Positions 42,155 through 62,845 of a stretch of 64,000 bases of DNA are shown here, piece by piece. Source of the stretch: Flavobacteriaceae bacterium UBA4439. Lineage in GTDB: Bacteria > Bacteroidota > Bacteroidia > Flavobacteriales > Flavobacteriaceae. The first letter of the stretch is position 1. Every line of letters starts with the position of its first letter. Made by a program: the position numbers and the translations under genes. The notes under the pieces are model-generated. The model was not told the origin of the DNA. It saw only the letters and a list, made by a program, of their open reading frames with translations, and did not search any database. The stretch covers positions 4,622 to 68,621 of the forward strand of contig DGPN01000047.1 in NCBI GenBank assembly GCA_002390455.1, given 5' to 3'.

Positions 42155-43333
42155 ATGTTATCCAATCGAATCAAGAGCCTGCCGGCCTCGGCAACTTTGG
42201 CTATGGCCGCAAAGGCCAGAGAGTTAAAGAATCAAGGAGTTGACATCATCGGACTCAGTTTGGGAGAACCCGATTTCAACACCCCAGAGTTCATCAAAGA
42301 CGCTGCCATTCAGGCTGTCAAAGACAATTACAATTCCTATTCGCCAGTCGATGGTTATGCCGATCTGAAAACAGCCATCTGTGAGAAATTTAAGCGCGAT
42401 AATGGATTGGAATATCAAGCCTCCCAGATCGTGGTCTCTACTGGAGCCAAGCAATCCATTGCCAATGTGTGTATGGTCTTGCTCGATCCGGACGACGAAG
42501 TGCTCTTGCCCGCTCCCTACTGGGTAAGCTATTCGGCCATTGCTACTTTGGCAGAGGCCAAATCCATCATCATTCCCTCATCGATAGAAGATGATTTTAA
42601 GATTACTCCCGAACAACTCGAAGCGGCCATCACCCCCAAAACCAAACTGGTAATGTTCAATTCTCCCAACAACCCCAGTGGAACAATTTATACTGAAGCA
42701 GAATACCGTGCTCTGGGTGCTGTACTTCAAAAATATCCCGACATCTTTATATTGTCGGATGAAATATACGAACACATCAATTACGGCACACCGCATTTTA
42801 GTATAGCTGCCATAGACGAATTGTATGACAGAACCATAACCGTCAATGGAGTGGCCAAAGCTTTTGCCATGACCGGTTGGCGAATTGGTTATATAGGAGC
42901 TCCAGAGTGGATTGCAAAGGCTTGTAACAAAATGCAGGGGCAAATAACTTCGGGTGCCAACTGTATCGCTCAAAGGGCTACCATTGCTGCAGTATCAGCC
43001 CCTACCAGTCAAATCCAATATATGGTTGACGAGTTCAACAACAGAAGAGGATTGATCTTAAATTTACTTTCTAAAATTCCTGGATTCAAACTCAACGAAC
43101 CCCAAGGTGCATTCTATGTATTCCCCGATGTTTCCTCCTATTTTGGAAAAACCATCAAAGGAAAAACCATCGAAAATGCGAATGATTTTGCTTTGTTTTT
43201 GTTGGAAGAAGCACATGTAGCAACAGTAACCGGCGATGCCTTTGGTAATTCTGATTGCATTCGGATTTCCTATGCCGCTTCTGAAGAAGACATCAAAACA
43301 GCTGTCGAAAGAATTAAAAACGCTTTAAGCTAA
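42155..43333 (+). CDS. Class I PLP-dependent aminotransferase (aspartate aminotransferase-like)
   Basis: LSLGEPDFNTP, NSPNNPSG, GVAKAFAMTGWRIGY. Confidence 0.85.
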   Translation: MLSNRIKSLPASATLAMAAKARELKNQGVDIIGLSLGEPDFNTPEFIKDAAIQAVKDNYNSYSPVDGYADLKTAICEKFKRDNGLEYQASQIVVSTGAKQSIANVCMVLLDPDDEVLLPAPYWVSYSAIATLAEAKSIIIPSSIEDDFKITPEQLEAAITPKTKLVMFNSPNNPSGTIYTEAEYRALGAVLQKYPDIFILSDEIYEHINYGTPHFSIAAIDELYDRTITVNGVAKAFAMTGWRIGYIGAPEWIAKACNKMQGQITSGANCIAQRATIAAVSAPTSQIQYMVDEFNNRRGLILNLLSKIPGFKLNEPQGAFYVFPDVSSYFGKTIKGKTIENANDFALFLLEEAHVATVTGDAFGNSDCIRISYAASEEDIKTAVERIKNALS

Positions 43334-43340
43334 AAATTTA

Positions 43341-43366
43341 AAAGCCTCCAGATGGAGGCTTTATTG
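43341..43366. terminator. Bidirectional intrinsic terminator between convergent genes
   Basis: AAGCCTCC-AGAT-GGAGGCTT (8-bp GC-rich stem), flanked by T-rich tracts on both strands (TTTAAATTTTTA on the minus sense, TTATTGATTT on the plus sense). Confidence 0.7.
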
Positions 43367-43368
43367 AT

Positions 43369-44451
43369 TTATCCGTTGATCACCTTTTCTTGGTGATTGA
43401 TTGACTCTTGGTGAATGGCTTTAAAAATTTGGGTGATGAATTCTTCACTCAAATTTCTTTCAACTCCCTCTGCTTGCATGGTTTCCAGAATTTCATTCCA
43501 ACGTTTGTTTTGCAGAACTGCCACGTTATTGTCTTTTTTGAGTTGACCAATGGACTCAGCTACTTTCATACGCTTGCCCAAAGCATCCAAAATGGCCTGG
43601 TCACTTACGTCGATTTTTTCCCGCAAGGTTTCAAGTTCCCTTTGGTAACTTTCCTCATAAGTTGTTTTCTTCCTGATTTTCAAATCATTCATGATTTCTA
43701 CCAAACGAGTAGGAGTTACTTGTTGCTTAGCATCGCTCCATGCATTATCTGGATCCCAATGTGATTCAATCATCAGCCCGTCAAAATTTAGATCTAAGGC
43801 TCTTTGACTGATGTCAAAAATCAAATCTCTACGTCCTGCTATATGGGAAGGGTCACAGATCAAAGGCATATCTGGAAAATTATTTTGGAATTCAACAGCA
43901 ATTTGCCATTCGGGATTGTTTCGGTACTTGGATTTGTCATAAGTTGAGAAACCACGGTGAATAACACCCAATTTTTTGATGTCAGCAGAATATAGTCTTT
44001 CCAATCCACCCATCCATAAAGCTAAATCTGGGTTTACTGGATTTTTGACCAAAACGATTTTATCTGTTCCTTTTAATGCATCAGCAATTTCTTGAACGAT
44101 AAAAGGACTAACGGTGGATCGAGCTCCAATCCACAAAATATCGATGTCTGCCTCTAAAGCCAAATTAACATGATCTTTATTGGCCACCTCGGTTGACGTC
44201 AATAGACCCGTTTGTTCTTTTACTTTTTTAAGCCAGTCCAAGCCAATGGCTCCAACCCCCTCGAACATACCAGGTCGAGTTCTAGGTTTCCAAATTCCTG
44301 CCCGGTAAACTGTTACATCAGTGTCTTTCAGTTCATGTGCAATTTTCAACACTTGTTCCTCGGTTTCTGCACTACAGGGACCAGCGATGACCAAAGGATG
44401 GTCGAGACCAAAATCGTGCAACCAGCTGCTCATTTCTTTACTATTTTCCAT
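43369..44451 (-). CDS. Bifunctional 3-deoxy-7-phosphoheptulonate synthase / chorismate mutase type II
   Basis: The N-terminal DAHPS/KDO8PS-family core (VIAGPCSAE, YRAGIWKPRTRP) is fused to a C-terminal AroQ-type CM segment (REKIDVSDQAILDALGKRMKVAESIGQLK). Confidence 0.85.
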   Translation of the reverse strand: MENSKEMSSWLHDFGLDHPLVIAGPCSAETEEQVLKIAHELKDTDVTVYRAGIWKPRTRPGMFEGVGAIGLDWLKKVKEQTGLLTSTEVANKDHVNLALEADIDILWIGARSTVSPFIVQEIADALKGTDKIVLVKNPVNPDLALWMGGLERLYSADIKKLGVIHRGFSTYDKSKYRNNPEWQIAVEFQNNFPDMPLICDPSHIAGRRDLIFDISQRALDLNFDGLMIESHWDPDNAWSDAKQQVTPTRLVEIMNDLKIRKKTTYEESYQRELETLREKIDVSDQAILDALGKRMKVAESIGQLKKDNNVAVLQNKRWNEILETMQAEGVERNLSEEFITQIFKAIHQESINHQEKVING

Positions 44452-44452
44452 T

Positions 44453-45319
44453 TTATTGATTGTTTTTGGTATTGGTAATGCCTTCTAAAATTTGACGAAT
44501 GTTGTTGATCTCGAGAATTTGCTCGTGTAATTTGTCAAATTGATTGGCATCCAAAAGTTGTTTAAATTGATTTAAATTATTGATGTATTGTGATAGTGTT
44601 TCGGTGATGTTCTCTTTATTCTGTTTGAAAATGGGAACCCACATATGGGGAGAACTTTTTGCCAAACGTACAGTAGAAGAAAACCCACTCCCAGCCATAT
44701 CAAAAATAGCGGACTGATCTTTTTCTTTTTCCATTACGGTTTTGCCCAACATATAGGAGCTGATGTGGGACAAATGGGACACATAGGTAATGTGTTGGTC
44801 GTGTTCCACTGGATCCATTTCCCTGAGATTCATTCCTATTTTTTTAAACCAATCTTGAGCCCATTCCAACAAATCGGGACGAGTTTTTTGGGTCTCACAA
44901 AGGATTTGAGTTTTATCTTCAAACAAATCGGGTAATGCAGCGGCAGGGCCCGAATATTCGGTTCCTGCAATGGGATGGGTGGCCAAAAACTGTCCGCGTT
45001 TGGAATGCAAGGCTACTTGTTGACAAATTGCGGCTTTGGTCGATCCAAAATCCATTATTAACGCATTGTCGTTGACTTCGTCCAGAAGATCAACCAATCG
45101 TTCCAATGCTATATCTACGGGTATGGCCAAAAGAATGATATCCATTTGCTTGATCATGGTCTCCTCCAATCTGAAATCAATCAATCCCAAGTCCAAAGAC
45201 TTTTGCAAGTTGGCTTGGCTTCTGTTGCTTCCGTAAATTTCTATATCTGGAATGTGTTCCCGTGCTGATAGCGCCAACGAACCTCCTATTAACCCAACAC
45301 CTATTATGCCTACTTTCAT
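44453..45319 (-). CDS. tyrA: Prephenate dehydrogenase
   Basis: MKVGIIGVGLIGGSLAL Rossmann motif, HPIAGTE, 288 aa. Confidence 0.85.
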   Translation of the reverse strand: MKVGIIGVGLIGGSLALSAREHIPDIEIYGSNRSQANLQKSLDLGLIDFRLEETMIKQMDIILLAIPVDIALERLVDLLDEVNDNALIMDFGSTKAAICQQVALHSKRGQFLATHPIAGTEYSGPAAALPDLFEDKTQILCETQKTRPDLLEWAQDWFKKIGMNLREMDPVEHDQHITYVSHLSHISSYMLGKTVMEKEKDQSAIFDMAGSGFSSTVRLAKSSPHMWVPIFKQNKENITETLSQYINNLNQFKQLLDANQFDKLHEQILEINNIRQILEGITNTKNNQ

Positions 45320-46464
45320 GCTTTCCTGATTCTTTCTAAGGCTTTACTGATTTGTAATTCCTCTACACAAAGGGAGAAGCGAATGTATCCTTCACCTTGG
45401 CTGCCAAATATACTACCAGGTGCTATAAAAATGTGGTGATTTTGTAAAATTTCTTCTATGTATTCCACCGAGGATTTTGAGGTGTCCCTCATTTTGGCCC
45501 AAACGAACAACCCACTGTTGTGAGCATCGAAGTCAGTATTGAGCAGGGAGGCCAGTTCAAAAATGAGCTTTCTTCTTTGACGGTAGATGTCGTTCAATTT
45601 TTCGAACCATGATTCCTGAGCCTGAAGTGCAGCAATAGCCCCTTGCTGAATGCCATAAAACATACCCGAATCCATGTTGCTTTTTACCTTTAACACTGCA
45701 TTGATATTTTCTTCATTTCCCAAAACCATGCCCACTCGCCAGCCAGCCATATTGAATGACTTGCTCAAAGAGTTCAATTCCATCCCAACCTCCATAGCAC
45801 CAGGGACAGACATCATGCTTTGGGGTTGATTGGTCAAAACAAAACTGTATGGATTGTCATTGACCAACAAAATATCTTTTTCCTTTGCCCAGGCAACTAA
45901 CTTTTCAAAGGTGTCTTTTTGGGCATTGGCACCCGTTGGCATGTGGGGATAATTGATCCACATGAGCTTGACAGCGGTCAGGTCCATTTGATCCAAAGCC
46001 TCCAAGTCGGGTTGCCATTGGTGTTCGGCTTTTAAATCATAAAAAACGGGTTCTGCCTCCACCAATCGAGTAATAGACTGATAGGTAGGATAGCCAGGAT
46101 TGGGAATCAATGCTTTATCACCAGGATTGAGAAAAGCCATGGAGATGTGCATTATTCCTTCCTTTGACCCCATAAGGGGAAGGATTTCACTACTGGGGTC
46201 GGCAGTGAATTGATAATACTTTTGGTAGAAGTTGGCAATGGCTTGACGCAACTCAGGAAGCCCCTGATAACTTTGGTACTGATGTACCTTGGGATGATCA
46301 AAACTATGCTTCAATGCCTCAACCACCGTTGGGTGGGCGGGAAGATCGGGACTGCCAATCCCCATATTGATAATGGGCTTTCCCTCAGCAACCATAGCCG
46401 CCACTGCTCTCAATTTTTTGGAGAAGTAGTATTCCTGTACGCTATTTAATCTTCTTGCCTTCAT
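45316..46464 (-). CDS. Class I PLP-dependent aminotransferase of the aromatic operon
   Basis: INMGIGSPD, NYPHMPTG, SLSKSFNMAGWRVG. It overlaps tyrA by 4 nt and pheA by 1 nt. Confidence 0.8.
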   Translation of the reverse strand: MKARRLNSVQEYYFSKKLRAVAAMVAEGKPIINMGIGSPDLPAHPTVVEALKHSFDHPKVHQYQSYQGLPELRQAIANFYQKYYQFTADPSSEILPLMGSKEGIMHISMAFLNPGDKALIPNPGYPTYQSITRLVEAEPVFYDLKAEHQWQPDLEALDQMDLTAVKLMWINYPHMPTGANAQKDTFEKLVAWAKEKDILLVNDNPYSFVLTNQPQSMMSVPGAMEVGMELNSLSKSFNMAGWRVGMVLGNEENINAVLKVKSNMDSGMFYGIQQGAIAALQAQESWFEKLNDIYRQRRKLIFELASLLNTDFDAHNSGLFVWAKMRDTSKSSVEYIEEILQNHHIFIAPGSIFGSQGEGYIRFSLCVEELQISKALERIRKA

Positions 46465-47285
46465 TATTTTCCAGAGGGATATTCGCCCAAAACCTTAAAG
46501 GCGGTGGCCATTATTTCTAAAAGTGACTTGGCTTTAAAGTAGTCTTCGGGCTTATCGAAAGTAACATCGACAAAAAAGGCGTATTTACCTGGGGTTTCAA
46601 TGACTGGTAGGGATTGAATTTTGGTCAGGTTGAGGTTGCAATCGCTTACCACATTTAGGGCAGTTGCAAGACTCCCGCGTTTGTGATCCAAAACAAATTT
46701 CCACGCCGCTTTACTGATGTTGTTTGACTTTTCCAATTTATCTTTTTGGACAATCACAAAACGGGTCACGTTATTTTTAATGGTTTGAATGGAAGGACTT
46801 AAAATCTCCAAACCGTAAATTTCTGCGGCTGTTTTTCCAGCAATGGCACCACGAGCTGTCATCTTATTCTTACTGATTTTGAGAGCTTCCTCTGCCGTAT
46901 CATTGCTTTCTACCAGTTTGATGTGGGGATAGGCATGAAAGAATTTTTTACACTGCAATAGTGCCATAGGATGGGAATGAACCTCTTCAAGGTCTTCAAT
47001 TTTTTGGCCGGGAAGGGCCATCAAATTATGTTCAATGCTAAGATAGTGTTCCCCAGAAATGACCAATTCATATTGATCCATTAGCGCATAGTTGGGTAAA
47101 ATAGACCCCGCAATAGAATTTTCTATGGCCATCACTGCCTGACTACAAGCTCCAGAGGCCACTGCTTGTGCGAGAACATCAAAAGAAAGGCATTCCATAA
47201 GTTCGGGAGTATGGTCATAGTATTCCTTGACCACTTGATCGTGGAATGATCCCTTAATTCCCTGTATGGCTATTCTCTGTGTCAT
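46464..47285 (-). CDS. pheA: Prephenate dehydratase
   Basis: IAIQGIKGSFHDQV, the TRFV motif, and a C-terminal ACT domain (GSLATALNVVSDCNLNLTKIQSLP). Confidence 0.9.
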   Translation of the reverse strand: MTQRIAIQGIKGSFHDQVVKEYYDHTPELMECLSFDVLAQAVASGACSQAVMAIENSIAGSILPNYALMDQYELVISGEHYLSIEHNLMALPGQKIEDLEEVHSHPMALLQCKKFFHAYPHIKLVESNDTAEEALKISKNKMTARGAIAGKTAAEIYGLEILSPSIQTIKNNVTRFVIVQKDKLEKSNNISKAAWKFVLDHKRGSLATALNVVSDCNLNLTKIQSLPVIETPGKYAFFVDVTFDKPEDYFKAKSLLEIMATAFKVLGEYPSGK

Positions 47286-47289
47286 GGTT

Positions 47290-47319
47290 CAAAAAAAAAG
47301 TCCCGATAAAATCAGGACT
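47290..47319 (-). terminator. Attenuator terminator upstream of pheA
   Basis: Minus-sense RNA AGUCCUGAU-UUU-AUCGGGACU (9 bp including one U.G pair) followed by U9. The tract ends 5 nt before the pheA AUG. Confidence 0.65.
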
Positions 47320-47344
47320 CTTTGTTTACTATATTTATAGATTA

Positions 47345-47413
47345 CTACAAAGTCCTTGCTACTTCCGAATAGAAGTAGTAAAAAGGAAAATTGTAATAAA
47401 ATTGATTTTTCAT
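47345..47413 (-). CDS. Phe/Tyr-rich leader peptide, 22 aa (MKNQFYYNFPFYYFYSEVARTL)
   Basis: ATG 47413..47411 to TAG 47347..47345. 4 Phe and 5 Tyr codons among 22, lying between a consensus promoter and the terminator hairpin. Confidence 0.6.
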   Translation of the reverse strand: MKNQFYYNFPFYYFYSEVARTL

Positions 47414-47430
47414 CTTTTATATAATCTGGA

Positions 47431-47463
47431 CAAATTTAAGATAGCTTTTGGCAAAAACAAATC
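47431..47463 (-). promoter_or_regulatory. Bacteroidota-type promoter (-33 TTTG / -7 TAnnTTTG) for the phe leader
   Basis: Minus sense: GATTTG - 19 nt - TAAATTTG, ending 17 nt upstream of the leader ATG. Confidence 0.55.
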
Positions 47464-47516
47464 ATTTTATAATTTTTTTATAGATTTATACAACCCAATA
47501 ATATCTTATTACTGAG

Positions 47517-47684
47517 ATGAAAATTTCACTTCTAACCTGCATTTTGGGGCATTTATTCCTCTTTCTTTCCATTTACCTTATTGTTAATTACAACACGAGC
47601 AATAGAGCTTACCTGATCGCTGGCGTATCCTATTTTGTTGGTTTTATGCTTAATTTAATTGGATACCTTGCCAAAAAAAGATGA
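47517..47684 (+). CDS. Possible small membrane protein, 55 aa
   Basis: MKISLLTCILGHLFLFLSIYLIVNYNTSNRAYLIAGVSYFVGFMLNLIGYLAKKR has two hydrophobic helices and a basic tail. It is below the ORF-track cut-off, with no homology evidence. Confidence 0.3.
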   Translation: MKISLLTCILGHLFLFLSIYLIVNYNTSNRAYLIAGVSYFVGFMLNLIGYLAKKR

Positions 47685-47798
47685 CTATAATTTTGGTTAC
47701 AGGAACCTTACTTTAAGGTAGAGTGAATCAAATTTAAAGATGAAGAAATCTATCCCTCAACAGAAAAATGATATATTACCCCAAAGGATAAAAAAAAT

Positions 47799-48797
47799 AT
47801 GACTGAAAAAAAGTCAAAACCCTCGGTGCGCTGGGGGATCATCGGCTGCGGTGATGTTACGGAGATAAAAAGTGGGCCCGCATATCAAAAGACAGCAGGT
47901 TTTGAATTGAAAGCGGTGATGAGACGGAACGCGGCCAAAGTCAGGGACTATGCCCACCGCCATGGAATCGAAAAATATTTTACAGATGCCGATGCATTGA
48001 TCGGTGATTCAGAAATAGACGCTGTGTATATAGCAACTCCGCCTGACAGTCATTTGTTCTACGCCCTAAAAGTGGCCGCAGCTGGGAAACCCTGTTGTAT
48101 CGAAAAACCCATGGCACCCACCCATGAGGAAAGTAAGCAAATTCAAGAAGTTTTTAACAAAAAGAACATTCCTCTTTTCGTTGCCTATTATCGTCGGTCC
48201 TTGCCACGGTTTACAAAAATAAAAGAGTGGTTGAATCAAGAAGAAATTGGAATGATCAGGCATATTAGTTGGCACCTAAGTCAGCCTCCCAACGCCTTGG
48301 ATTTGTCTGGAGACTTCAACTGGCGAACCGATCCTAAAGTAGCACCAGGTGGTTATTTCGACGACTTGGCAAGTCATGGACTCGATTTGTTTGTCTATTT
48401 ATTAGGGGAAATTCAAGAGGTTTCTGGGGTAAGCCTCAACCAACAGGGATTATATGTTGCAAAAGATGCGATTGCCGCCAGTTGGTTGCATAGAGGAGGC
48501 ATTACTGGTGCTGGCGTATGGAATTTCGGATTGGCGTCTTTAGACAGGGTAGAAATTTTCGGAAACCTAGGAAAGATATCGTTTTCGGTTTTTGAAGATA
48601 ATCCGCTGATCATAGAAAAAGAAGGTGAAAAGACAGAACTTTTTATCGAACATCCCCATCACGTTCAAATGCCTCATGTGGAAAATATGAAAAAACATCT
48701 CTTAAACCCAGATTATTCTCATCCTTCAACAGGAAAATCGGGAGCACACACCAGTTGGGTAATGGATCAAATTCTTGGCAGAAAAAGCACCAAATAG
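47799..48797 (+). CDS. Gfo/Idh/MocA-family oxidoreductase
   Basis: VRWGIIGCGDVTEIKSGPAYQ Rossmann N-terminus and CIEKPMA; 332 aa. Confidence 0.8.
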   Translation: MTEKKSKPSVRWGIIGCGDVTEIKSGPAYQKTAGFELKAVMRRNAAKVRDYAHRHGIEKYFTDADALIGDSEIDAVYIATPPDSHLFYALKVAAAGKPCCIEKPMAPTHEESKQIQEVFNKKNIPLFVAYYRRSLPRFTKIKEWLNQEEIGMIRHISWHLSQPPNALDLSGDFNWRTDPKVAPGGYFDDLASHGLDLFVYLLGEIQEVSGVSLNQQGLYVAKDAIAASWLHRGGITGAGVWNFGLASLDRVEIFGNLGKISFSVFEDNPLIIEKEGEKTELFIEHPHHVQMPHVENMKKHLLNPDYSHPSTGKSGAHTSWVMDQILGRKSTK

Positions 48798-55602: not shown

Positions 55603-56024
55603 AATTCTGCGCCATTTAAGAAAATGGAATATTTAATTGGGGTTGAATATTCTAGTGTTTTGGCCACTGAGCAATATTTGTCAAATGATAGACAAACGGC
55701 TCTTTTTGCTTTTTCGGGGGGAATATCCCCTTCTAACCATACATTGACTTTAATTTTGTAAAATAATGAAGGAGCTACATTCGGAATTCGTTCTCCTTCA
55801 ACATCCATTTTAAGATCGGTAGGGTTTATTTTTTGTTTGTTGAGAATGGCGATAATATCAATACCACTGCAACCAGCAAGGGCCGCCAAGAGAAGTTCCA
55901 TAGGACTTGCACCTTCTACTTTTCCTTCTTTTTTGGATTTATTGTCCAGCAGTACTTTGTGTCCATTATCGTTGGTAACTTCAAAAAGATAGTTCTGATT
56001 GATCCTATTGAGATTTACTTTCAT
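55599..56024 (-). CDS. OsmC/Ohr-family protein
   Basis: GASPMELLLAALAGCSGIDI and C-terminal DKYCSVAKTL (the two conserved Cys). The start was moved to MKVNLNRI (56024); the longer ORF overlaps metX by 89 nt. Confidence 0.75.
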   Translation of the reverse strand: MKVNLNRINQNYLFEVTNDNGHKVLLDNKSKKEGKVEGASPMELLLAALAGCSGIDIIAILNKQKINPTDLKMDVEGERIPNVAPSLFYKIKVNVWLEGDIPPEKAKRAVCLSFDKYCSVAKTLEYSTPIKYSIFLNGAEL

Positions 56025-57009
56025 GAGATTGGGAATAATTTGATTTAGGTCTGAAAATGCCACTAAAGATTTGCGATACGGTCTTGTTTTCAATCAAAAA
56101 AGCATCGTGTCCATGAATGGATTTTATTTCGTGATAATAAATGTTCTCCTTAATTTTTTTACCCCTTTCAAGGGTTTTTTGATCTTCCTCGGCCGTAAAA
56201 AAGAGGTCGCTATCAATGGCGATCAGATGGATGTTGGAAGATATGTTTTCAATTATTTTTTCGAGGGAGTCTCCCTTGCGTGTAATATCAACAGAAGCCA
56301 AAAGGTGATTCATGGTTTTGTAGGCCTGCAGAAGAAATCGACTTTCCAATTTGTCACCGTGATGAACAAGCCAACTTTCAACATTAAAGAGCTTTTTTTC
56401 AGTATTGAATGTTCTCCCAAAACGCTCTGTAAATGAAGCAGGGGTTCGATAGGTGAGCATGGCATGAATGCGGGCATCCTTAAGTGGTTCGCTGGAGTTC
56501 TCCAAAAGTCTTTTCTGAAGAAATGTATTGGCAATGATCCAGTCCGAAGCTTTCCAATCGGCCGCAACCGGAATTAAATTTTCGGTCAAATGAGGGTTCA
56601 AAGCAGCCATTTCCCAAGCAATACCACCTCCGATTGATCCACCGATAAGGGCAAAAAGTTTTTGGACACCTAAAATCTGTAATCCTTGACAAAAAATTTC
56701 TGCAATATCACCAGTATGAAAATCATCGTATTTATCCAAGGTATCATTTTTGACACCGTTGCCAGGAATGTTAAAAGCCAGTATGGAATAATGATGGGTA
56801 TCAATGGTAAGGTTAGGTCCGACAATTTCACTCCACCACCCTTGTGGACCAGCAACATTGGCGTCGCCGGTCAAAGAGTGATTAATTAGAACTACGGGTG
56901 CATGGTCGAATGACTGACCAAAGTGCTGATAGTGCAAATCGATCTTGTCATAAACAACACCTGAGTCGGTAGTGAAATTATAGATGGATATGGTTTTAAC
57001 CTCAGCCAT
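56005..57009 (-). CDS. metX: Homoserine O-acetyltransferase
   Basis: Alpha/beta hydrolase with PVVLINHSLTGD and the nucleophile elbow GGSIGGG; 334 aa. Confidence 0.85.
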   Translation of the reverse strand: MAEVKTISIYNFTTDSGVVYDKIDLHYQHFGQSFDHAPVVLINHSLTGDANVAGPQGWWSEIVGPNLTIDTHHYSILAFNIPGNGVKNDTLDKYDDFHTGDIAEIFCQGLQILGVQKLFALIGGSIGGGIAWEMAALNPHLTENLIPVAADWKASDWIIANTFLQKRLLENSSEPLKDARIHAMLTYRTPASFTERFGRTFNTEKKLFNVESWLVHHGDKLESRFLLQAYKTMNHLLASVDITRKGDSLEKIIENISSNIHLIAIDSDLFFTAEEDQKTLERGKKIKENIYYHEIKSIHGHDAFLIENKTVSQIFSGIFRPKSNYSQSHESKSQ

Positions 57010-57017
57010 TAAAAAAA

Positions 57018-58289
57018 TTATATGTTCTTAAGTGCAAGATCTAAATCATCTTTTAAATCCTCCAAGTTTTCAATTCCAACCGATAGTCTTACCAAATCAG
57101 GCGTTACCCCAGTACTTTTTTGCTCCTCTTCGTTCAACTGAGAGTGAGTCGTACTGGAAGGGTGAATGATCAATGACTTGGTGTCACCAATATTGGCCAG
57201 TAATGCAAATATTTTGGTGTTTTCCGTAACTTTTTTAGCGGCTTCGAATCCTTTCTTCAATCCGAAAGTAACGATTCCACTTTTTCCATTCGGAAGATAT
57301 TCATTGGCTAAATCGGCGTATTCAGAAGATTCCAATCCAGGATAGTTTACCCAGCTGACTTCGTCGCGAGACTTCAGCCATTGGGCGAGTTCCAATGCGT
57401 TTTCTGAATGTTTTTTCATTCTAATTTCTAAGGTTTCCAAACCTTGAATGACTTGGAAACTATTGAGCGGACTGGGAGCACTTCCCAAATCTCTTAGACC
57501 TTCTACTCTTACTCTTGCAATAAAAGCAATGGGACCCAATGCATCGTGATACTTCAATCCGTGATAGGAGGGAGAAGGCTCCGTAAATTCTGGGAAGTTT
57601 CCATTGGAATAATCAAAAGTCCCCGCATCGATGATCACCCCACCAATGGTGGTTCCATTTCCTGTAATGTATTTGGTCAATGAATGGATTACGATATTGG
57701 CACCGTGAGCTATAGGGTTGAGCAAGGCTGGAGTAGCAATGGTATTGTCAACAATAAAAGGAACTTTTGCCGCTTTGGCATGCGCACTGATTCCTTTTAA
57801 GTCCAAAACGTCCAACTTGGGATTTCCCAATGATTCTGCAAAAAATGCTCTGGTATTGGGCTGAACTGCTTTGGCAAAATTCTCAACATCATCTGGATCA
57901 ACAAATGTAGTAGTGATTCCAAATCGAGGTAAAGTATTGTTCAACATATTAAAAGTTCCACCATAAAGACTGTTGGAAGCAACAATGTGATCTCCTGCCT
58001 TGAGAAGTGTCATCAATGTGGTTGCGATTGCAGCTGTACCAGATGCGGTAGCAACTGCTGCTACACCGCCCTCAACTGCTGCCAACCTTTGTTCAAGAAT
58101 ATCGTTGGTGGGATTATTCAGTCGGGTATAAATGTATCCTGATTCTGCAAGAGCAAACAAATTGGCTGCATGGTCTGAATCATTAAATACATAAGAGGAT
58201 GTTTGATAAATTGGAACGGCTCTGGTTCCCTGTGTTTTTGTCACATCATGCCCCGCATGAAGTGCATTGGTTGCTAATTTTAAACTCAT
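57018..58289 (-). CDS. metY: O-acetylhomoserine aminocarboxypropyltransferase (sulfhydrylase)
   Basis: 423 aa: [20 protein letters not shown] (PLP lysine). Confidence 0.9.
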
Positions 58290-59542
58290 AATTCGAAAAT
58301 GTTTTTAATTTTATTTATATAATCAAGTTTTTCCCAAGTAAAAAGTTCAACGGTTTTCTCCACCCTACCACTGTATGGTGATTCAAATATTTTGTTGATC
58401 TCTCTTGGCTGTCTTCCCATGTGACCATAAGCAGCAGTTTCGAGGTAGATGGGGTTTCTCAGTTTAAGTCGATTTTCGATGGCAAAAGGGCGCAAATCAA
58501 AAATTTCACTCACCTTCTTAGCAATTTCTGGGTCAGAGAGGGAAACTTTGGAAGTGTTGTAAGTGTTGATGTTGATAGAAGTTGGTTCCACCACTCCAAT
58601 GGCATAACTCAATTGAACCAATATCTCTTTGGCCACTCCTGCAGCCACTAGATTTTTGGCGATATGCCTCGCTGCATAAGCCGCACTTCGGTCTACTTTA
58701 CTGGGGTCTTTTCCACTGAAAGCTCCTCCACCGTGTGCTCCTTTGCCTCCATAAGTATCAACAATAATTTTTCTTCCAGTTAATCCTGTATCACCATGAG
58801 GACCTCCTATCACAAATTTTCCAGTAGGATTGATGTGGTAAGTGATCTCTTGATTGAATAGCTTTTGAATGTGAGCTGGTTCTTTTTCGATTACATTTTT
58901 AATGGCGATATTAATGATGTCGCTTTTGATTTTTTCGAGCATCTGTTCGTCGTCCTCTAAAAATTGATCGTGTTGGGTAGAGACCACAATGGTGTCGATG
59001 CGCAATGGTTCCCCTTGGTCAGTGTATTCAATGGTAACCTGTGATTTTGAATCAGGCCGGAGATATGTAATATCTTTGTTATCCCTTCTAAGGGCGGCCA
59101 GTTCAATCAATATTTTATGTGATAAATCCAGAGCCAACGGAATGTAGTTGTGCGTTTCATCGGTTGCATAACCGAACATGATCCCTTGGTCTCCAGCTCC
59201 TTGATTTTCTTTTTCGGCTCGGTCAACCCCCCGATTGATATCTTGTGACTGCTCATGGATCAAAGAGATTACCCCACAGGAATTTCCGCTAAACTGGTAT
59301 TCGTCTTTAGTGTATCCAATTTTGTTAATGGTTTCGCGAGCGATACTTTGAACGTCCAAGTAGGTATGACTCTTGACCTCGCCAGCCAGTATGGCTTGCC
59401 CAGTAGTAACCAAGGTTTCACAGGCTACTTTACTCTCGGGGTCGAAGGCAATAAAATTATCTAAAAGGGCGTCGCTGATTTGATCTGAGACCTTGTCAGG
59501 GTGTCCTTCGCTAACAGATTCTGAGGTGAAAAAATAAGACAT
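58286..59542 (-). CDS. metK: Methionine adenosyltransferase
   Basis: [35 protein letters not shown]. Confidence 0.95.
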
Positions 59543-59645
59543 TTGTATGTTGCTTTCTGGGGGGATTTGACAGAGTACGTCTTAAAGCAACTACTGCTTT
59601 AGCATTTTTTTAAGAGGTTGCAATCAGTCAAATCCTTCCTCAATT
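59543..59645 (-). promoter_or_regulatory. Structured 5' leader of metK; candidate SAM-responsive riboswitch (class unresolved)
   Basis: Minus-sense RNA contains a 9-bp closing helix GGAUUUGAC...GUCAAAUCC, the SAM-I-like strings GCAACC and UGCUAAAGCAG, and a GUUGCUUU segment. That segment can pair either with the upstream AAAGCA or with AAAGCAAC 7 nt before the AUG. Confidence 0.4.
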
Positions 59646-59651
59646 AGGTTA

Positions 59652-59681
59652 CAAATGTATTACTAATTTTTAAATTTCAAA
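59652..59681 (-). promoter_or_regulatory. Bacteroidota-type promoter for the metK operon
   Basis: Minus sense: TTTG - 18 nt - TACATTTG (TAnnTTTG), about 110 nt upstream of the metK ATG. Confidence 0.5.
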
Positions 59682-60418: not shown

Positions 60419-60534
60419 ACCTCCAAAGCCTAAGGTATTTTTAGGTTTTAAATCATAGAAATTTATAGGCTTAAGATTGTTTTATATTAGGAATGGTTTT
60501 ACTATTTTTGGAGCCATTAAAAAACCATTATTTC

Positions 60535-62775
60535 ATGAAATTTGTAATTGACTTTTTACCTGTTTTCGGGCTATTAGCCTTGCTATTTGTATTTATAAAA
60601 AATAATTGGATTGCCAAACAAGAGATTGGCACCGAAAAAATGGCAATCATTGCCGAAAACATTGCCAAAGGAGCTATGTCTTTCCTGAAAGCTGAATATA
60701 GGATTTTATCCATTTTTGTGGTTTGCTTGGCTGTACTGTTGTACATCAAAGGAAGTAATGAAGAAGGATCACATGGAATGGTTGCCCTTTCCTTTGTGGT
60801 AGGTGCCATTTGTTCAGCACTTGCAGGTTTTATCGGAATGCGTGTGGCGACCAAAGCAAATGTAAGAACGACCAATGCCGCAAGGACTTCACTGGGTAAA
60901 GCCTTGGAAGTTGCTTTCACAGGAGGTTCCGTAATGGGATTAGGTGTTGTTGGTTTGGGTGTATTGGGTTTGAGTAGTTTGTTCGCTTTTTATCAAAACG
61001 TTTGGCCTGGTGCCGAAAACTTGACTACTGTACTGAATGTATTGACTGGGTTCTCTATGGGCGCCTCTTCGATTGCCTTGTTTGCAAGAGTAGGTGGTGG
61101 AATTTATACCAAAGCAGCCGATGTAGGTGCTGACTTGGTTGGTAAGGTTGAAGCAGGAATCCCTGAAGATCATCCTCTAAACCCCGCAACCATTGCGGAT
61201 AACGTAGGGGACAATGTAGGAGATGTTGCTGGTATGGGCGCTGATTTATTTGAATCTTATGTAGGTTCAATCATCGGGACGATGGTACTGGGAGCTTTTA
61301 TCATTACCCCCGAATTTGGAGGATTGGGTGCTGTTTATCTACCTCTTGTACTCGCTGCATTTGGGATTGTAATGTCTATCATTGGAACCTTTTTTGTGAA
61401 AGTTAAAGAAGGTGGTAACCCTCAAACCGCACTGAATCTAGGAGAATTTGGATCGGCAGGTTTGATGGTGATCGTATCCTATTTTGTGATTCAAATAATG
61501 ATTCCTGAATCAACAGAGGGCTTACCTTTCGGTGCTATGGGAGTGTTTTTAGCGACCATATCTGGATTAGTTGCTGGTTTGGGTGTTGGAAAAATTACTG
61601 AATATTACACTGGAACTGGAACCAAGCCCGTCTCTGCAATTGTTCGTCAATCTGAAACTGGAGCGGCTACCAATATAATTGCTGGTTTGGGTGTGGGTAT
61701 GATGTCAACTATGATTCCTATTCTACTCATCGCAGCTGCGATATTAATATCTCATCACTACGCAGGATTATATGGTATAGCCATTGCCGCTGTAGGGATG
61801 TTGGCCAATACAGGAATTCAATTGGCCGTTGATGCTTACGGACCCATCTCCGACAATGCAGGTGGGATTGCTGAAATGGCAGAATTGCCTGCCGAAGTAA
61901 GAGAGCGCACAGACAAGTTGGATGCCGTAGGAAACACTACTGCTGCTATTGGAAAAGGTTTCGCCATTGCCTCTGCTGCCCTTACGGCCTTAGCATTATT
62001 CTCAGCCTTTATGCAAGTAGCCAATGTCACCGCAATCGATGTTTCCAAGCCCAAAGTAATGGCTGGACTCCTTGTGGGAGGTATGTTGCCATTTGTTTTT
62101 TCTGCACTCTCCATGAATGCAGTTGGACGTGCGGCCATGTCAATGATTGAAGAAGTAAGAAGACAATTTAAAGATATTCCCGAATTGAAAGCGGCACTCG
62201 AAATTATGAGAAAATACGACGCTGATATTTCCAAAGCTAGCGCCAAAGACCGTGCTATTTTTGACGCGGCCGACGGTAAAGCAGATTACGAAAAGTGTGT
62301 TGAGATTTCTACCAAAGCCTCCATCAAAGAAATGGTGATGCCCGGACTATTGGCCATATTAGTGCCTGTAGCTGTAGGTTTACTGGGAGGTGCAGAAATG
62401 CTTGGAGGTCTTTTGGCTGGTGTTACCACTTGTGGTATACTGATGGCCATTTTCCAATCTAACGCTGGAGGTGCATGGGACAATGCCAAAAAAATGATCG
62501 AATCTGATGGAAAAAAAGGTACTGACGCTCACAAAGCGGCAGTAGTTGGTGATACTGTTGGAGATCCATTTAAGGATACTTCAGGACCTTCCCTTAATAT
62601 CCTACTAAAATTGATGTCTGTAGTGGCCTTGGTGATTGCACCAACCATTGCAATCAACGGGGATACCATGGGAGAGAAAATTGTAAAACCTGAGCATACC
62701 ATTAGTATCGAAGCAGAAGAAGAATCTGATATTGCTGACAATAGTGTTCGTTACGAAGATCTTATTGAAAAGTAG
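60535..62775 (+). CDS. hppA: Membrane-bound H+/Na+-translocating pyrophosphatase
   Basis: The start is set at [50 protein letters not shown], and the C-terminal [17 protein letters not shown]. Confidence 0.95.
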
Positions 62776-62807
62776 ATTCTACTCCAAAATTAAAAATTTA
62801 TAATACT

Positions 62808-62845
62808 AAAGACCCAGCACAATCCGAATGTTGGGTCTTTTTTTA
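62808..62845 (+). terminator. Intrinsic terminator after hppA
   Basis: AAAGACCCAGCA-CAATCCGAA-TGTTGGGTCTTT followed by TTTTT; the stem contains one G.U pair. Confidence 0.7.

Follow-up and report, generated by a model that had tools for sequence, protein, structure and literature searches.

An operon for aromatic amino acid biosynthesis is preceded here by a reading frame of only 22 codons, rich in codons for phenylalanine and tyrosine, and by a hairpin with a U-run that ends just before the first structural gene. The question raised by this locus is whether the arrangement is an attenuator governed by a translating ribosome and, if so, whether such an element has already been described in the Bacteroidota. 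The window, as we call the entire 64,000-nt stretch of DNA analyzed, comes from an uncultured marine Flavobacteriaceae bacterium.

Pfam searches verified the gene order pheA-aminotransferase-tyrA-DAHPS/CM given in a first-pass annotation of the same DNA. All four genes lie on the minus strand: pheA, encoding prephenate dehydratase, is the first structural gene (46464..47285; PF00800, E = 1.7e-53), followed by a class I/II aminotransferase of the aromatic/aspartate type (45316..46464; PF00155, E = 3.3e-61), the prephenate dehydrogenase gene tyrA (44453..45319; PF02153 and PF20463, i.e., PDH_N and PDH_C), and a bifunctional DAHP synthase/chorismate mutase (43369..44451; PF00793 and PF01817, i.e., DAHP_synth_1 and CM_2). 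A terminator scan found the operon to end in a hairpin that resembles a bidirectional terminator (43341..43362). The neighboring gene on the other side (47799..48797) is on the plus strand, which makes the intergenic region a divergent promoter region; because no gene ends there, attenuation is the only role open to a terminator located between promoter and pheA. Sequence anatomy, conservation, covariation of both helices, and homology to an element of Flavobacterium psychrophilum together indicate that the operon is very probably controlled by a classical ribosome-mediated Phe/Tyr leader-peptide transcription attenuator.

The leader reading frame, its hairpins, and the promoter

The leader mini-ORF (47345..47413, minus strand) starts with an ATG at 47413, stops with a TAG at 47347..47345, and encodes the peptide MKNQFYYNFPFYYFYSEVARTL. 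Direct reading and the ORF list confirmed the first-pass description of 22 codons with nine Phe or Tyr codons and no Trp codon, as well as the 59 nt between the leader stop codon and the pheA ATG (47285). The aromatic codons fall within codons 5–15, F Y Y N F P F Y Y F Y (region 1; 47369..47401, minus strand), which form the regulatory codon cluster and comprise four Phe (three TTT and one TTC) and five Tyr (two TAT and three TAC) codons. Such a density sets the frame apart in the 64-kb window: among 648 ATG-initiated ORFs of 10–45 amino acids, it is the sole outlier with more than six Phe/Tyr codons in any 11, having nine where the runner-up small ORF has six. Pfam and NCBIfam peptide searches produced no match to the leader peptide. 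To our knowledge, the Shine-Dalgarno signal is absent from Bacteroidota, so the start of the leader ORF is not corroborated in that way.

The 143-nt leader RNA folds with far greater stability than shuffled versions of itself (−36.1 versus −19.2 ± 3.1 kcal/mol with RNAfold; z = −5.45, with 0 of 200 shuffles as good). The three structures proposed in the first-pass annotation, a small hairpin, an antiterminator, and a terminator, are all present where it had placed them, but the small CUACUUC/GAAGUAG hairpin (47378..47359) had to be redrawn with 8 bp and a 4-nt loop, and it proved to be embedded in a larger pairing of regions 1 and 2 that had not been described. This extended 1:2 structure (47342..47399, minus strand) is the RNAfold minimum free energy (MFE) fold and consists of three helices on that strand: an inner hairpin (CUACUUCU, 47378..47371, with GGAAGUAG, 47366..47359), a middle helix (UCCUU, 47387..47383, with AAGGA, 47357..47353), and an outer helix (UUAUUACAA, 47399..47391, with UUGUAGUAA, 47350..47342).

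The 5′ arm of the antiterminator (region 2), AGGACUUUG (47348..47356, minus strand), corresponds to AGG ACU UUG, the last sense codons before the UAG. Its 3′ arm (region 3), CAAAGAGUCCU (47314..47324, minus strand), shares 6 nt (47319..47314) with the 5′ arm of the terminator. The duplex can be drawn as in the first-pass annotation, with GGACUUUG (47355..47348) opposite CAAAGAGUCC (47324..47315), or alternatively as eight contiguous pairs, one of them G-U, between AGGACUUU (47356..47349) and AGAGUCCU (47321..47314). In the window, its energy was −11.1 kcal/mol compared with −5.2 kcal/mol for shuffles (z = −2.9). The intrinsic terminator (regions 3:4; 47291..47319, minus strand) is made up of AGUCCUGAU, a UUU loop, and AUCGGGACU; its stem-loop spans 47319..47299, and its U-run (47299..47291) ends 5 nt 5′ of the pheA ATG. 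The hairpin itself stood as claimed, but the arm and tail given for it count the first U twice, and the total is nine U. A rule-based terminator scan of the window did not list this hairpin, probably because an extension of the stem consumes the U-run.

A Bacteroidota-type promoter is predicted at 47431..47461 (minus strand), with a −33 TTTG (47461..47458), a spacer of 19 nt, and a −7 box, TAAATTTG (47438..47431), that ends 17 nt 5′ of the leader ATG. The position agrees with the first-pass annotation, and the closest relatives have the same motif and 19-nt spacer, ending 16–17 nt 5′ of their leader ATG; the pattern alone, however, does not reach significance in the window (6 matches versus 3.2 expected, with 6 reached by 8 of 100 shuffles) and was dropped as stand-alone evidence. 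A sigma-70 promoter scan was set aside because its model is not applicable to Bacteroidota. In the F. psychrophilum homologue, the transcription start was mapped 6 nt past the TAtgTTTG box (Guerin et al., 2021; PMC9723704). Transcription in the window probably starts at about 47425–47427, approximately 12–14 nt 5′ of the leader AUG.

A described homologue and conservation across Flavobacteriaceae

The first-pass annotation had asked whether a Bacteroidota element of this kind was already described, and it was. Guerin et al. (2021; ISME Commun 1:33, PMC9723704) reported a pheA-aspC3 mRNA leader attenuation element in F. psychrophilum THCO2-90 (THC0290_N_0195; SI Appendix D9, Table S7), with a mapped transcription start, condition-dependent read-through, and a short CDS with tandem-arranged aromatic codons. 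They noted its conservation in other Flavobacteriaceae genera and the lack of an Rfam hit, and their description is a prediction that draws its support from transcriptomics rather than from mutations. The published expression table has four adjacent columns in which the 5′ segment has log2 values of 11.5–12.4 and pheA of 5.9–7.9, and two others in which both are at approximately 11–12 (PMC9723704). We found no other description of Phe/Tyr leaders in the Bacteroidetes literature; a Bacteroides thetaiotaomicron transcriptome paper mentions leader-like sORFs generically only.

A covariance model, R1, combined the published F. psychrophilum sequence with 17 Flavobacterium loci and contained no sequence from the marine clade. 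It matched the window at 47292..47416 on the minus strand, over its full length, with 46.9 bits and E = 4.4e-6; overall, 39 of 41 sources gave a single match per locus, with nothing else significant in 400 kb. The window element is a member of the Flavobacteriaceae pheA attenuator already reported in 2021 and is not new. A second R1 match in the window (62715..62844, plus strand; E = 0.17) was rejected as a second leader: it is a terminator after an H+-pyrophosphatase gene.

Conservation was assessed in the best 80 of 594 loci from a scan of a genome collection, all from Flavobacteriaceae and with pheA 60–89% identical. An in-frame Phe/Tyr-rich mini-ORF, an antiterminator, and a terminator with a U-run lie directly 5′ of pheA in every one of these 80 loci. 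The operon order is kept in 76 of the 80; in the remaining four, the genes or the order found differ, and at least two of these loci are short. The codon cluster contains 7–9 aromatic codons in 77 of the 80 loci.

The reading frame could in principle be incidental to a U/A-rich leader if the attenuator instead responded to something acting in trans, for instance an RNA-binding protein, a tRNA, or a small molecule. At the 28% G+C of the intergenic DNA, TTT and TAT triplets occur often, and there is weak, sub-threshold Rfam resemblance to PyrR (26 bits) and L20_leader (16 bits), but no Rfam family reaches its threshold. Against an incidental frame, aromatic codons are enriched only in the frame of the ATG (mean count 8.0 versus 1.9 and 2.6 in the other frames), with TTT/TTC and TAT/TAC alternating, and frame, start, and nearby stop are found in all of the best 80 of 594 loci despite 53 distinct leader peptides. 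The window holds no comparable small ORF, and the stop codon always sits where a terminating ribosome masks region 2. Control by a trans-acting factor is therefore very unlikely in our view, and conservation of the frame suggests that the leader ORF is translated in the window organism.

The 5′ segment of F. psychrophilum is abundant independently of pheA, and the two belong to separate expression clusters (C143 and C53, respectively; PMC9723704), as might be expected if the short terminated transcript or the 22-amino-acid peptide were itself functional, as a small RNA or small protein, and read-through into pheA were leakage. Outside the aromatic cluster, however, the only conserved parts of the peptide are those whose codons double as RNA arms (for example, RTL = AGG ACU UUG), it has no Pfam or NCBIfam match, and the element is always attached to the same operon in the best 80 of 594 loci. 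The stop position also varies within Flavobacterium (FFFRK*, SRS*, and SRSEDCAMVI*), and the RNA 3′ of it is conserved; at all three positions, the antiterminator arm is within reach of the terminating ribosome. We regard an independent function of the transcript or peptide as very improbable.

RNAalifold and pair counts over 73 sequences showed the terminator to be paired in 100% of 511 cells, with compensatory changes at four of its seven pairs; none of 500 shuffles was as good, and slid controls reached at most 57% paired. A per-sequence duplex analysis, which was anchored on the well-aligned terminator arm and fitted to the hypothesis, found the antiterminator in all but one of 74 sequences, with the start of its 5′ arm lying anywhere from 25 nt 5′ to 2 nt 3′ of the first base of the stop codon. 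Column-based covariation of the antiterminator across clades was discarded because region 2 of the marine clade was misaligned with that of Flavobacterium in both MAFFT and model-fitted alignments; the same misalignment explains why RNAalifold found only the terminator. Three positions covary jointly in regions 2, 3, and 4: U-A-U in 50 sequences versus C-G-C in 20 at the first, G-C-G in 71 versus A-U-A in 2 at the second, and A-U-A in 40 versus G-C-G in 8 at the third, which amounts to few independent evolutionary events because the changes are at clade level. The 5′ arm of the terminator covaries with both of its alternative partners, consistent with the mutual exclusion of antiterminator and terminator claimed in the first-pass annotation.

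The hairpins could also act mainly, or additionally, on pheA translation, with the terminator hairpin blocking initiation and the antiterminator opening the zone. The zone in which ribosomes land on this mRNA, which has no Shine-Dalgarno sequence, includes the end of the hairpin, 6–14 nt 5′ of the pheA AUG, and the gap from U-tract to pheA ATG, 5 nt in the window, is 2–9 nt in most relatives. Translational occlusion, however, needs no U-tail, and here the tail is a perfect run of nine U and is kept at 6–9 U in 74 of 74 sequences. Several Flavobacterium loci have 50–90 additional nt before pheA with the element intact, and in F. psychrophilum the level of the RNA itself falls across the element. 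These observations make a translational mode of action unlikely.

Ribosome position and the proposed mechanism

Folding models of 74 sequences agree with the ribosome logic put forward in the first-pass annotation, in which a ribosome at the stop codon permits the terminator and a stalled ribosome permits the antiterminator. In 62 of 74 sequences, placing the ribosome on the last aromatic codon led to sequestration of 4 nt or more of the terminator arm (mean −12.1 kcal/mol, median z = −3.1); with the ribosome at the stop codon, the antiterminator remained in 2 of 74 (mean −0.8 kcal/mol). The number of paired terminator-arm nucleotides fails to separate real from shuffled sequences (3.7 versus 3.4), and only the energy does so. 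In leaders that end in FFFRK*, a ribosome at the final codon of the aromatic cluster already covers part of the antiterminator arm and only 3 nt are sequestered in the model, so stalling in these leaders must fall at earlier codons of the cluster.

Nascent folds also bear on the state of the leader before any ribosome has loaded. In 69 of 74 sequences, half or more of the antiterminator 5′ arm is already paired with leader sequence upstream of it when region 3 has yet to be transcribed, and the 1:2 pairing exceeds that of shuffles by a modest margin (9.5 nt observed versus 7.0; median energy z = −2.2). We conclude with moderate confidence that the extended 1:2 structure may sequester the antiterminator 5′ arm when region 1 is free of ribosomes. 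When the window RNA was cut before the 3′ arm of the terminator and folded without a ribosome, the MFE structure contained the small hairpin and the antiterminator together; termination by default would therefore depend on the 1:2 helix forming first, during transcription.

Together, these data suggest the following mechanism. Transcription would begin approximately 12–14 nt 5′ of the leader AUG, and the nascent leader would adopt the 1:2 structure and tie up the antiterminator arm until a ribosome translating the 22-codon ORF melts it. With charged tRNA-Phe and tRNA-Tyr plentiful, the ribosome would reach the UAG and cover AGGACUUUG; because region 2 is then covered, region 3 would pair with region 4, and the AGUCCUGAU/AUCGGGACU hairpin with its nine U would terminate transcription 5 nt before pheA. 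With either aromatic aminoacyl-tRNA scarce, the ribosome would stall inside codons 5–15, and the free region 2 would pair with CAAAGAGUCCU, removing 6 nt of the terminator 5′ arm; the terminator would be disrupted, and polymerase would read through into the operon. Phe/Tyr-sensing attenuation, as first proposed from the window alone, is supported by conservation, reading frame, covariation, modeling, and the F. psychrophilum homologue, and it is likely that stalling and a Phe/Tyr response occur in the uncultured window organism as well.

The ratio of Phe to Tyr codons is approximately 4:5 in the marine clade and approximately 6:2 in Flavobacterium, and a UGG codon is added in the leaders of F. 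psychrophilum and the Winogradskyella lineage. We rejected the idea that the share of Tyr codons is tied to the presence of tyrA: tyrA is present in essentially all loci, and the ratio varies. Tentatively, and at somewhat less than even odds, the element may be a bivalent aromatic sensor in which limitation for Phe or for Tyr would each relieve termination, with Trp having the same effect in lineages that bear UGG and the Phe:Tyr ratio tuned by lineage. We know of no experimental demonstration of a leader-peptide attenuator that depends on Tyr codons. Leaders of the Flavobacterium johnsoniae type offer an easy system for asking whether Tyr codons are regulatory; many Flavobacterium loci have a leader peptide of the form MASNRFYFSNxFYFFFSRS.., and that of F. 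johnsoniae is expected to resemble it.

Textbook leader-peptide attenuation probably operates, and at the least is strongly conserved, throughout Flavobacteriaceae, abundant uncultured marine lineages included, in a phylum that departs from the E. coli paradigm in its promoters and in how translation is initiated. The attenuator element has no model in Rfam, Pfam, or NCBIfam; with strong covariation in at least 80 species, it is a candidate for curation as a new family, which would give annotators a well-supported, previously unmodeled cis-regulatory family of mini-ORF, antiterminator, and terminator. The practical value is modest, and no new question is raised.

Comparison with known attenuators

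The F. psychrophilum element occupies the same place, directly 5′ of the orthologous pheA, and likewise has a short ORF whose aromatic codons form two blocks, an antiterminator (GGGAUUGU/ACAAUCCC), and an A-N-UCC-N-G type terminator followed by nine U. The window peptide has 22 amino acids with five Tyr, four Phe, and no Trp, whereas that of F. psychrophilum has 27 with four Tyr, three Phe, and one Trp. The leader stop codon comes right after region 2 in the window and 21 nt beyond it in F. psychrophilum, and the long-range helix of Flavobacterium, AAUAACCGU/AUGGUUAUU, is replaced in the window by the outer helix of the 1:2 structure. The DAHP synthase gene of F. psychrophilum has its own mapped transcription start, whereas tyrA and the DAHPS/CM gene directly follow the aminotransferase gene in the window.

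An Rfam scan of the whole window returned no family at gathering level. Bacteroid-trp (RF01692) also gave no match in 46800..48000 at E values of 10 or below. The Bacteroid-trp leader is a leader-peptide type cis-regulator found 5′ of trpE in Bacteroidetes (Weinberg et al., 2010; PMC2864571), and its F. psychrophilum representative, whose peptide is MNTFLNNTWWWNNLRQTS, has been mapped (PMC9723704); because it is such a regulator, the leader-peptide mechanism is established for the phylum. It resembles the window element as a leader-peptide type regulator 5′ of an aromatic amino acid operon but differs in its Trp codons, its operon, and its RNA.

The pheL-pheA attenuator of gamma-proteobacteria (RF01859; Gurvich et al., 2011; PMC3082878) similarly has aromatic (Phe) codons in a run within a short leader ORF, followed by alternative antiterminator and terminator hairpins before prephenate dehydratase. 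However, pheL contains Phe codons only and precedes pheA alone, whereas the window leader mixes Phe and Tyr codons and its operon includes both branch enzymes and the first common step. The Phe_leader model scored 22.0 bits against a gathering threshold of 55 (E = 0.63) and did not reach it; the window element is not a homologue of proteobacterial pheL in either sequence or structure. In E. coli, tyrA and aroF are repressed by TyrR. Multivalent attenuators are also known from E. coli, where the thr leader has Thr and Ile codons and the ilvGMEDA leader has Leu, Val, and Ile codons. These leaders sense other amino acids and have no homology to the window element, but they share with it the principle of a single leader whose codons represent more than one end product of the controlled pathway.

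Leader mini-ORF and RNA structures upstream of pheA

The pheA operon is preceded on the minus strand by a mini-ORF (47413..47345) that encodes MKNQFYYNFPFYYFYSEVARTL and ends with UAG. Codons 5–15 comprise four Phe and five Tyr codons with no Trp codon, and the stop lies 59 nt from the pheA AUG (47285); sequence reading and the ORF list bore out the first-pass annotation on all of these points. Of 648 ATG-started ORFs of 10–45 codons in the six frames of the window, only this one has nine Phe/Tyr codons in any 11, all others having six or fewer. Pfam identified the downstream genes as prephenate dehydratase, class I/II aminotransferase, prephenate dehydrogenase, and DAHP synthase fused to chorismate mutase, in agreement with their earlier assignment. 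The neighboring gene (47799..48797) is divergent to the operon; therefore, no gene end falls inside the intergenic region. The proposed promoter-like motif, TTTG-N19-TAAATTTG (47461..47431, minus strand), was found where it had been placed, ending 17 nt 5′ of the leader AUG. The pattern by itself is not significant (6 matches in the window versus 3.2 expected); within the clade to which the window belongs, the motif is conserved with its 19-nt spacer, 16–17 nt upstream of the leader ATG. At the other end of the operon, the DAHPS/CM gene (ending at 43369) converges on a gene for a second class I/II aminotransferase (42155..43333, plus strand), and between the two lies a hairpin resembling a bidirectional terminator, AAAGCCUCC-loop-GGAGGCUUU (43341..43362).

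Three minus-strand RNA structures had been read from the sequence: a small hairpin, CUACUUC/GAAGUAG (47378..47359); an antiterminator pairing GGACUUUG (47355..47348) with CAAAGAGUCC (47324..47315); and a terminator, AGUCCUGAU-UUU-AUCGGGACU (47319..47299). All coordinates were correct, but the U9 tract and the terminator 3′ arm had been given as separate when they share one U: the run totals nine U, the first being the final base of that arm. The last U of the run is at 47291, 5 nt upstream of the pheA start codon. The terminator hairpin could instead act mainly on pheA translation, an explanation that we consider improbable.

The 143-nt leader RNA has a minimum free energy (MFE) of −36.1 kcal/mol, whereas dinucleotide-shuffled controls average −19.2 ± 3.1 (z = −5.45). 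In the MFE fold, the small hairpin is nested inside a larger 1:2 structure that was absent from the first-pass annotation, with helices between UUAUUACAA (47399..47391) and UUGUAGUAA (47350..47342) and between UCCUU (47387..47383) and AAGGA (47357..47353), all on the minus strand; region 1, the aromatic codons, would therefore sequester region 2, the antiterminator arm. As modeled, the layout is the classical four-region arrangement of 1:2, 2:3, and 3:4 pairings. A rule-based scan missed the attenuator terminator (47291..47324, minus strand); RNAfold and RNAalifold report the hairpin. The miss is probably explained by the flanking AAAG, which can base-pair with U residues at the start of the tail, as it does in the MFE fold; too few unpaired U residues would then remain to satisfy the scan rule.

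Conservation and covariation among relatives

Relatives were collected by a PheA alignment scan with one genome per species, and the closest 80 of 594 loci (PheA 60–89% identical) were analyzed; they come from Flavobacterium, Winogradskyella, Leptobacterium, Candidatus Arcticimaribacter, and many marine MAGs. All of these 80 loci have a Phe/Tyr-rich, ATG-started mini-ORF just 5′ of pheA, followed by a hairpin and U-run. Together they encode 53 distinct leader peptides, with free interchange of TTT/TTC and of TAT/TAC and a single added UGG in a few lineages. Across the cluster, aromatic codons average 8.0 in the ORF frame versus 1.9 and 2.6 in the two alternative frames. A factor-dependent attenuator, for which the ORF would be incidental, is very unlikely. 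The order pheA-aminotransferase-tyrA-DAHPS/CM is kept in 76 of the 80 loci; gene set or order differs in the remaining four, at least two of which are short. Two public MAG contigs (L003:1631-1775 and L006:3872-4003) contain N runs or scattered N within the leader region and were left out of the structure analyses; possible causes are strain heterogeneity and an ambiguous assembly of this locus.

Terminator pairing comprised standard pairs in 511 of 511 cells (73 distinct sequences). Four of the seven pairs changed on both sides, which none of 500 shuffles matched, and slid controls were at most 57% paired. Column alignments of the antiterminator failed across clades; instead, the terminator arm served as an anchor for finding the best duplex with the segment 3′ of the aromatic cluster. 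A duplex invading 5–8 nt of the terminator 5′ arm was found in 73 of 74 sequences, including the published F. psychrophilum sequence, with its 5′ arm starting anywhere from −25 to +2 nt relative to the stop codon's first base. The same region 3 positions covary with both partners, regions 2 and 4: the region 2/3/4 triples were U-A-U (50) versus C-G-C (20), G-C-G (71) versus A-U-A (2), and A-U-A (40) versus G-C-G (8), with wobble intermediates only.

Within Flavobacterium (loci among L012–L079; e.g., L012:3854-3994, L026:3856-3992, and L016:3855-3994), the leader stops at three positions, FFFRK*, SRS*, and SRSEDCAMVI*. The RNA 3′ of the variable stop, GGAUUGUGCUAUGGUUAUUUGA, is nearly invariant and pairs with two partners, AAUAACCGU in the ORF and the terminator-arm sequence ACAAUCC; because the stop varies and this RNA is kept, the tail of the longer peptides is conserved as RNA, not protein. 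A short RNA or peptide with an independent function is extremely unlikely. Some Flavobacterium loci (L030:3905-4003, L040, L042, L046, L064, L067, and L061:3942-4003) have 50–95 extra nt between the U-tract and the pheA ATG, including a long palindrome, AAAACTTTGTCAAAGTTTCAAACTTTGACAAAGTTG, in L061; the pheA start may be misplaced in L064 and L067.

Modeled ribosome position and the choice of structure

To model stalling, the ribosome was placed on the cluster's final aromatic codon and made to mask 13 nt counted from the first base of that codon. In this state, 62 of 74 sequences sequestered four or more nt of the terminator arm (mean −12.1 kcal/mol, median z −3.1), compared with two of 74 with the ribosome at the stop codon (mean −0.8 kcal/mol). 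Sequences that did not do so on stalling were mostly FFFRK* leaders, where the last aromatic codon is three codons from the stop; therefore, stalling would have to take place earlier in the cluster. In folds of the nascent RNA that stop short of region 3, 69 of 74 sequences had half or more of region 2 paired with the leader (9.5 nt observed, 7.0 nt shuffled; median energy z −2.2). This modeled 1:2 pairing is consistent with attenuation, less strongly than the other structures.

The best explanation, and a very probable one, is classical ribosome-mediated attenuation; conservation, covariation, modeled ribosome masking, and homology uphold the attenuator originally read from the window. Anatomy, conservation, covariation, and homology are observed; translation of the mini-ORF, the transcription start, stalling, and a response to amino acid supply are what we infer.

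Relation to described elements

Rfam 15 contains no family for the leader element; the top sub-threshold resemblances were to PyrR, at 26 bits against a gathering score of 54, and to the proteobacterial Phe_leader (RF01859), at 22 bits against one of 55 (E = 0.63). The leader peptide has no Pfam or NCBIfam model. Across the whole window, only a SAM-II riboswitch (RF01726, 75 bits, E = 1e-12; 59589..59647, minus strand) reached the gathering thresholds. It lies directly 5′ of metK (S-AdoMet synthetase), which is followed by genes for a Cys/Met PLP enzyme and an alpha/beta hydrolase (59542..58286, 58289..57018, and 57009..56005, minus strand), and just downstream of a promoter-like TTTG-N18-TAcaTTTG (59652..59681, minus strand). 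SAM-II is likewise found in front of metK in F. psychrophilum (PMC9723704).

The first-pass annotation had left open whether such a Bacteroidota element was already described; it was, in the same bacterial family. Guerin et al. (2021; ISME Commun 1:33, PMC9723704) reported strong clues of leader-peptide attenuation 5′ of amino acid operons, with putative terminator/antiterminator hairpins and read-through under specific conditions (SI Appendix D9), and mapped the transcription start of the F. psychrophilum element. In the expression table of that study, four columns have the 5′ segment at log2 11.5–12.4 and pheA at 5.9–7.9, and two others have both at ~11–12 (PMC9723704).

A covariance model, R1, was trained (alignment A3) on the published sequence and 17 loci from the genus Flavobacterium, the training set containing none from the marine clade. 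It matched the window's element at full length (46.9 bits, E = 4.4e-6). In 39 of 41 sources its sole match was the leader, and 400 kb gave no other significant match. The next match in the window (62715..62844, plus strand; 22 bits, E = 0.17) was rejected as a second attenuator; it is the ordinary gene-end terminator of the H+-pyrophosphatase gene (60493..62775), whose 3′ end carries the hairpin and U-run. From the R1 match, the window's element is a member of the family published in 2021.

The element was previously described for the same bacterial family, and its mechanism is textbook; added here are its breadth (80 species, from the closest 80 of 594 loci), three-way covariation, stop-codon polymorphism, and a quantitative ribosome-masking test. 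Although a member of neither Rfam Phe_leader nor Bacteroid-trp, it would work in the same way as both.
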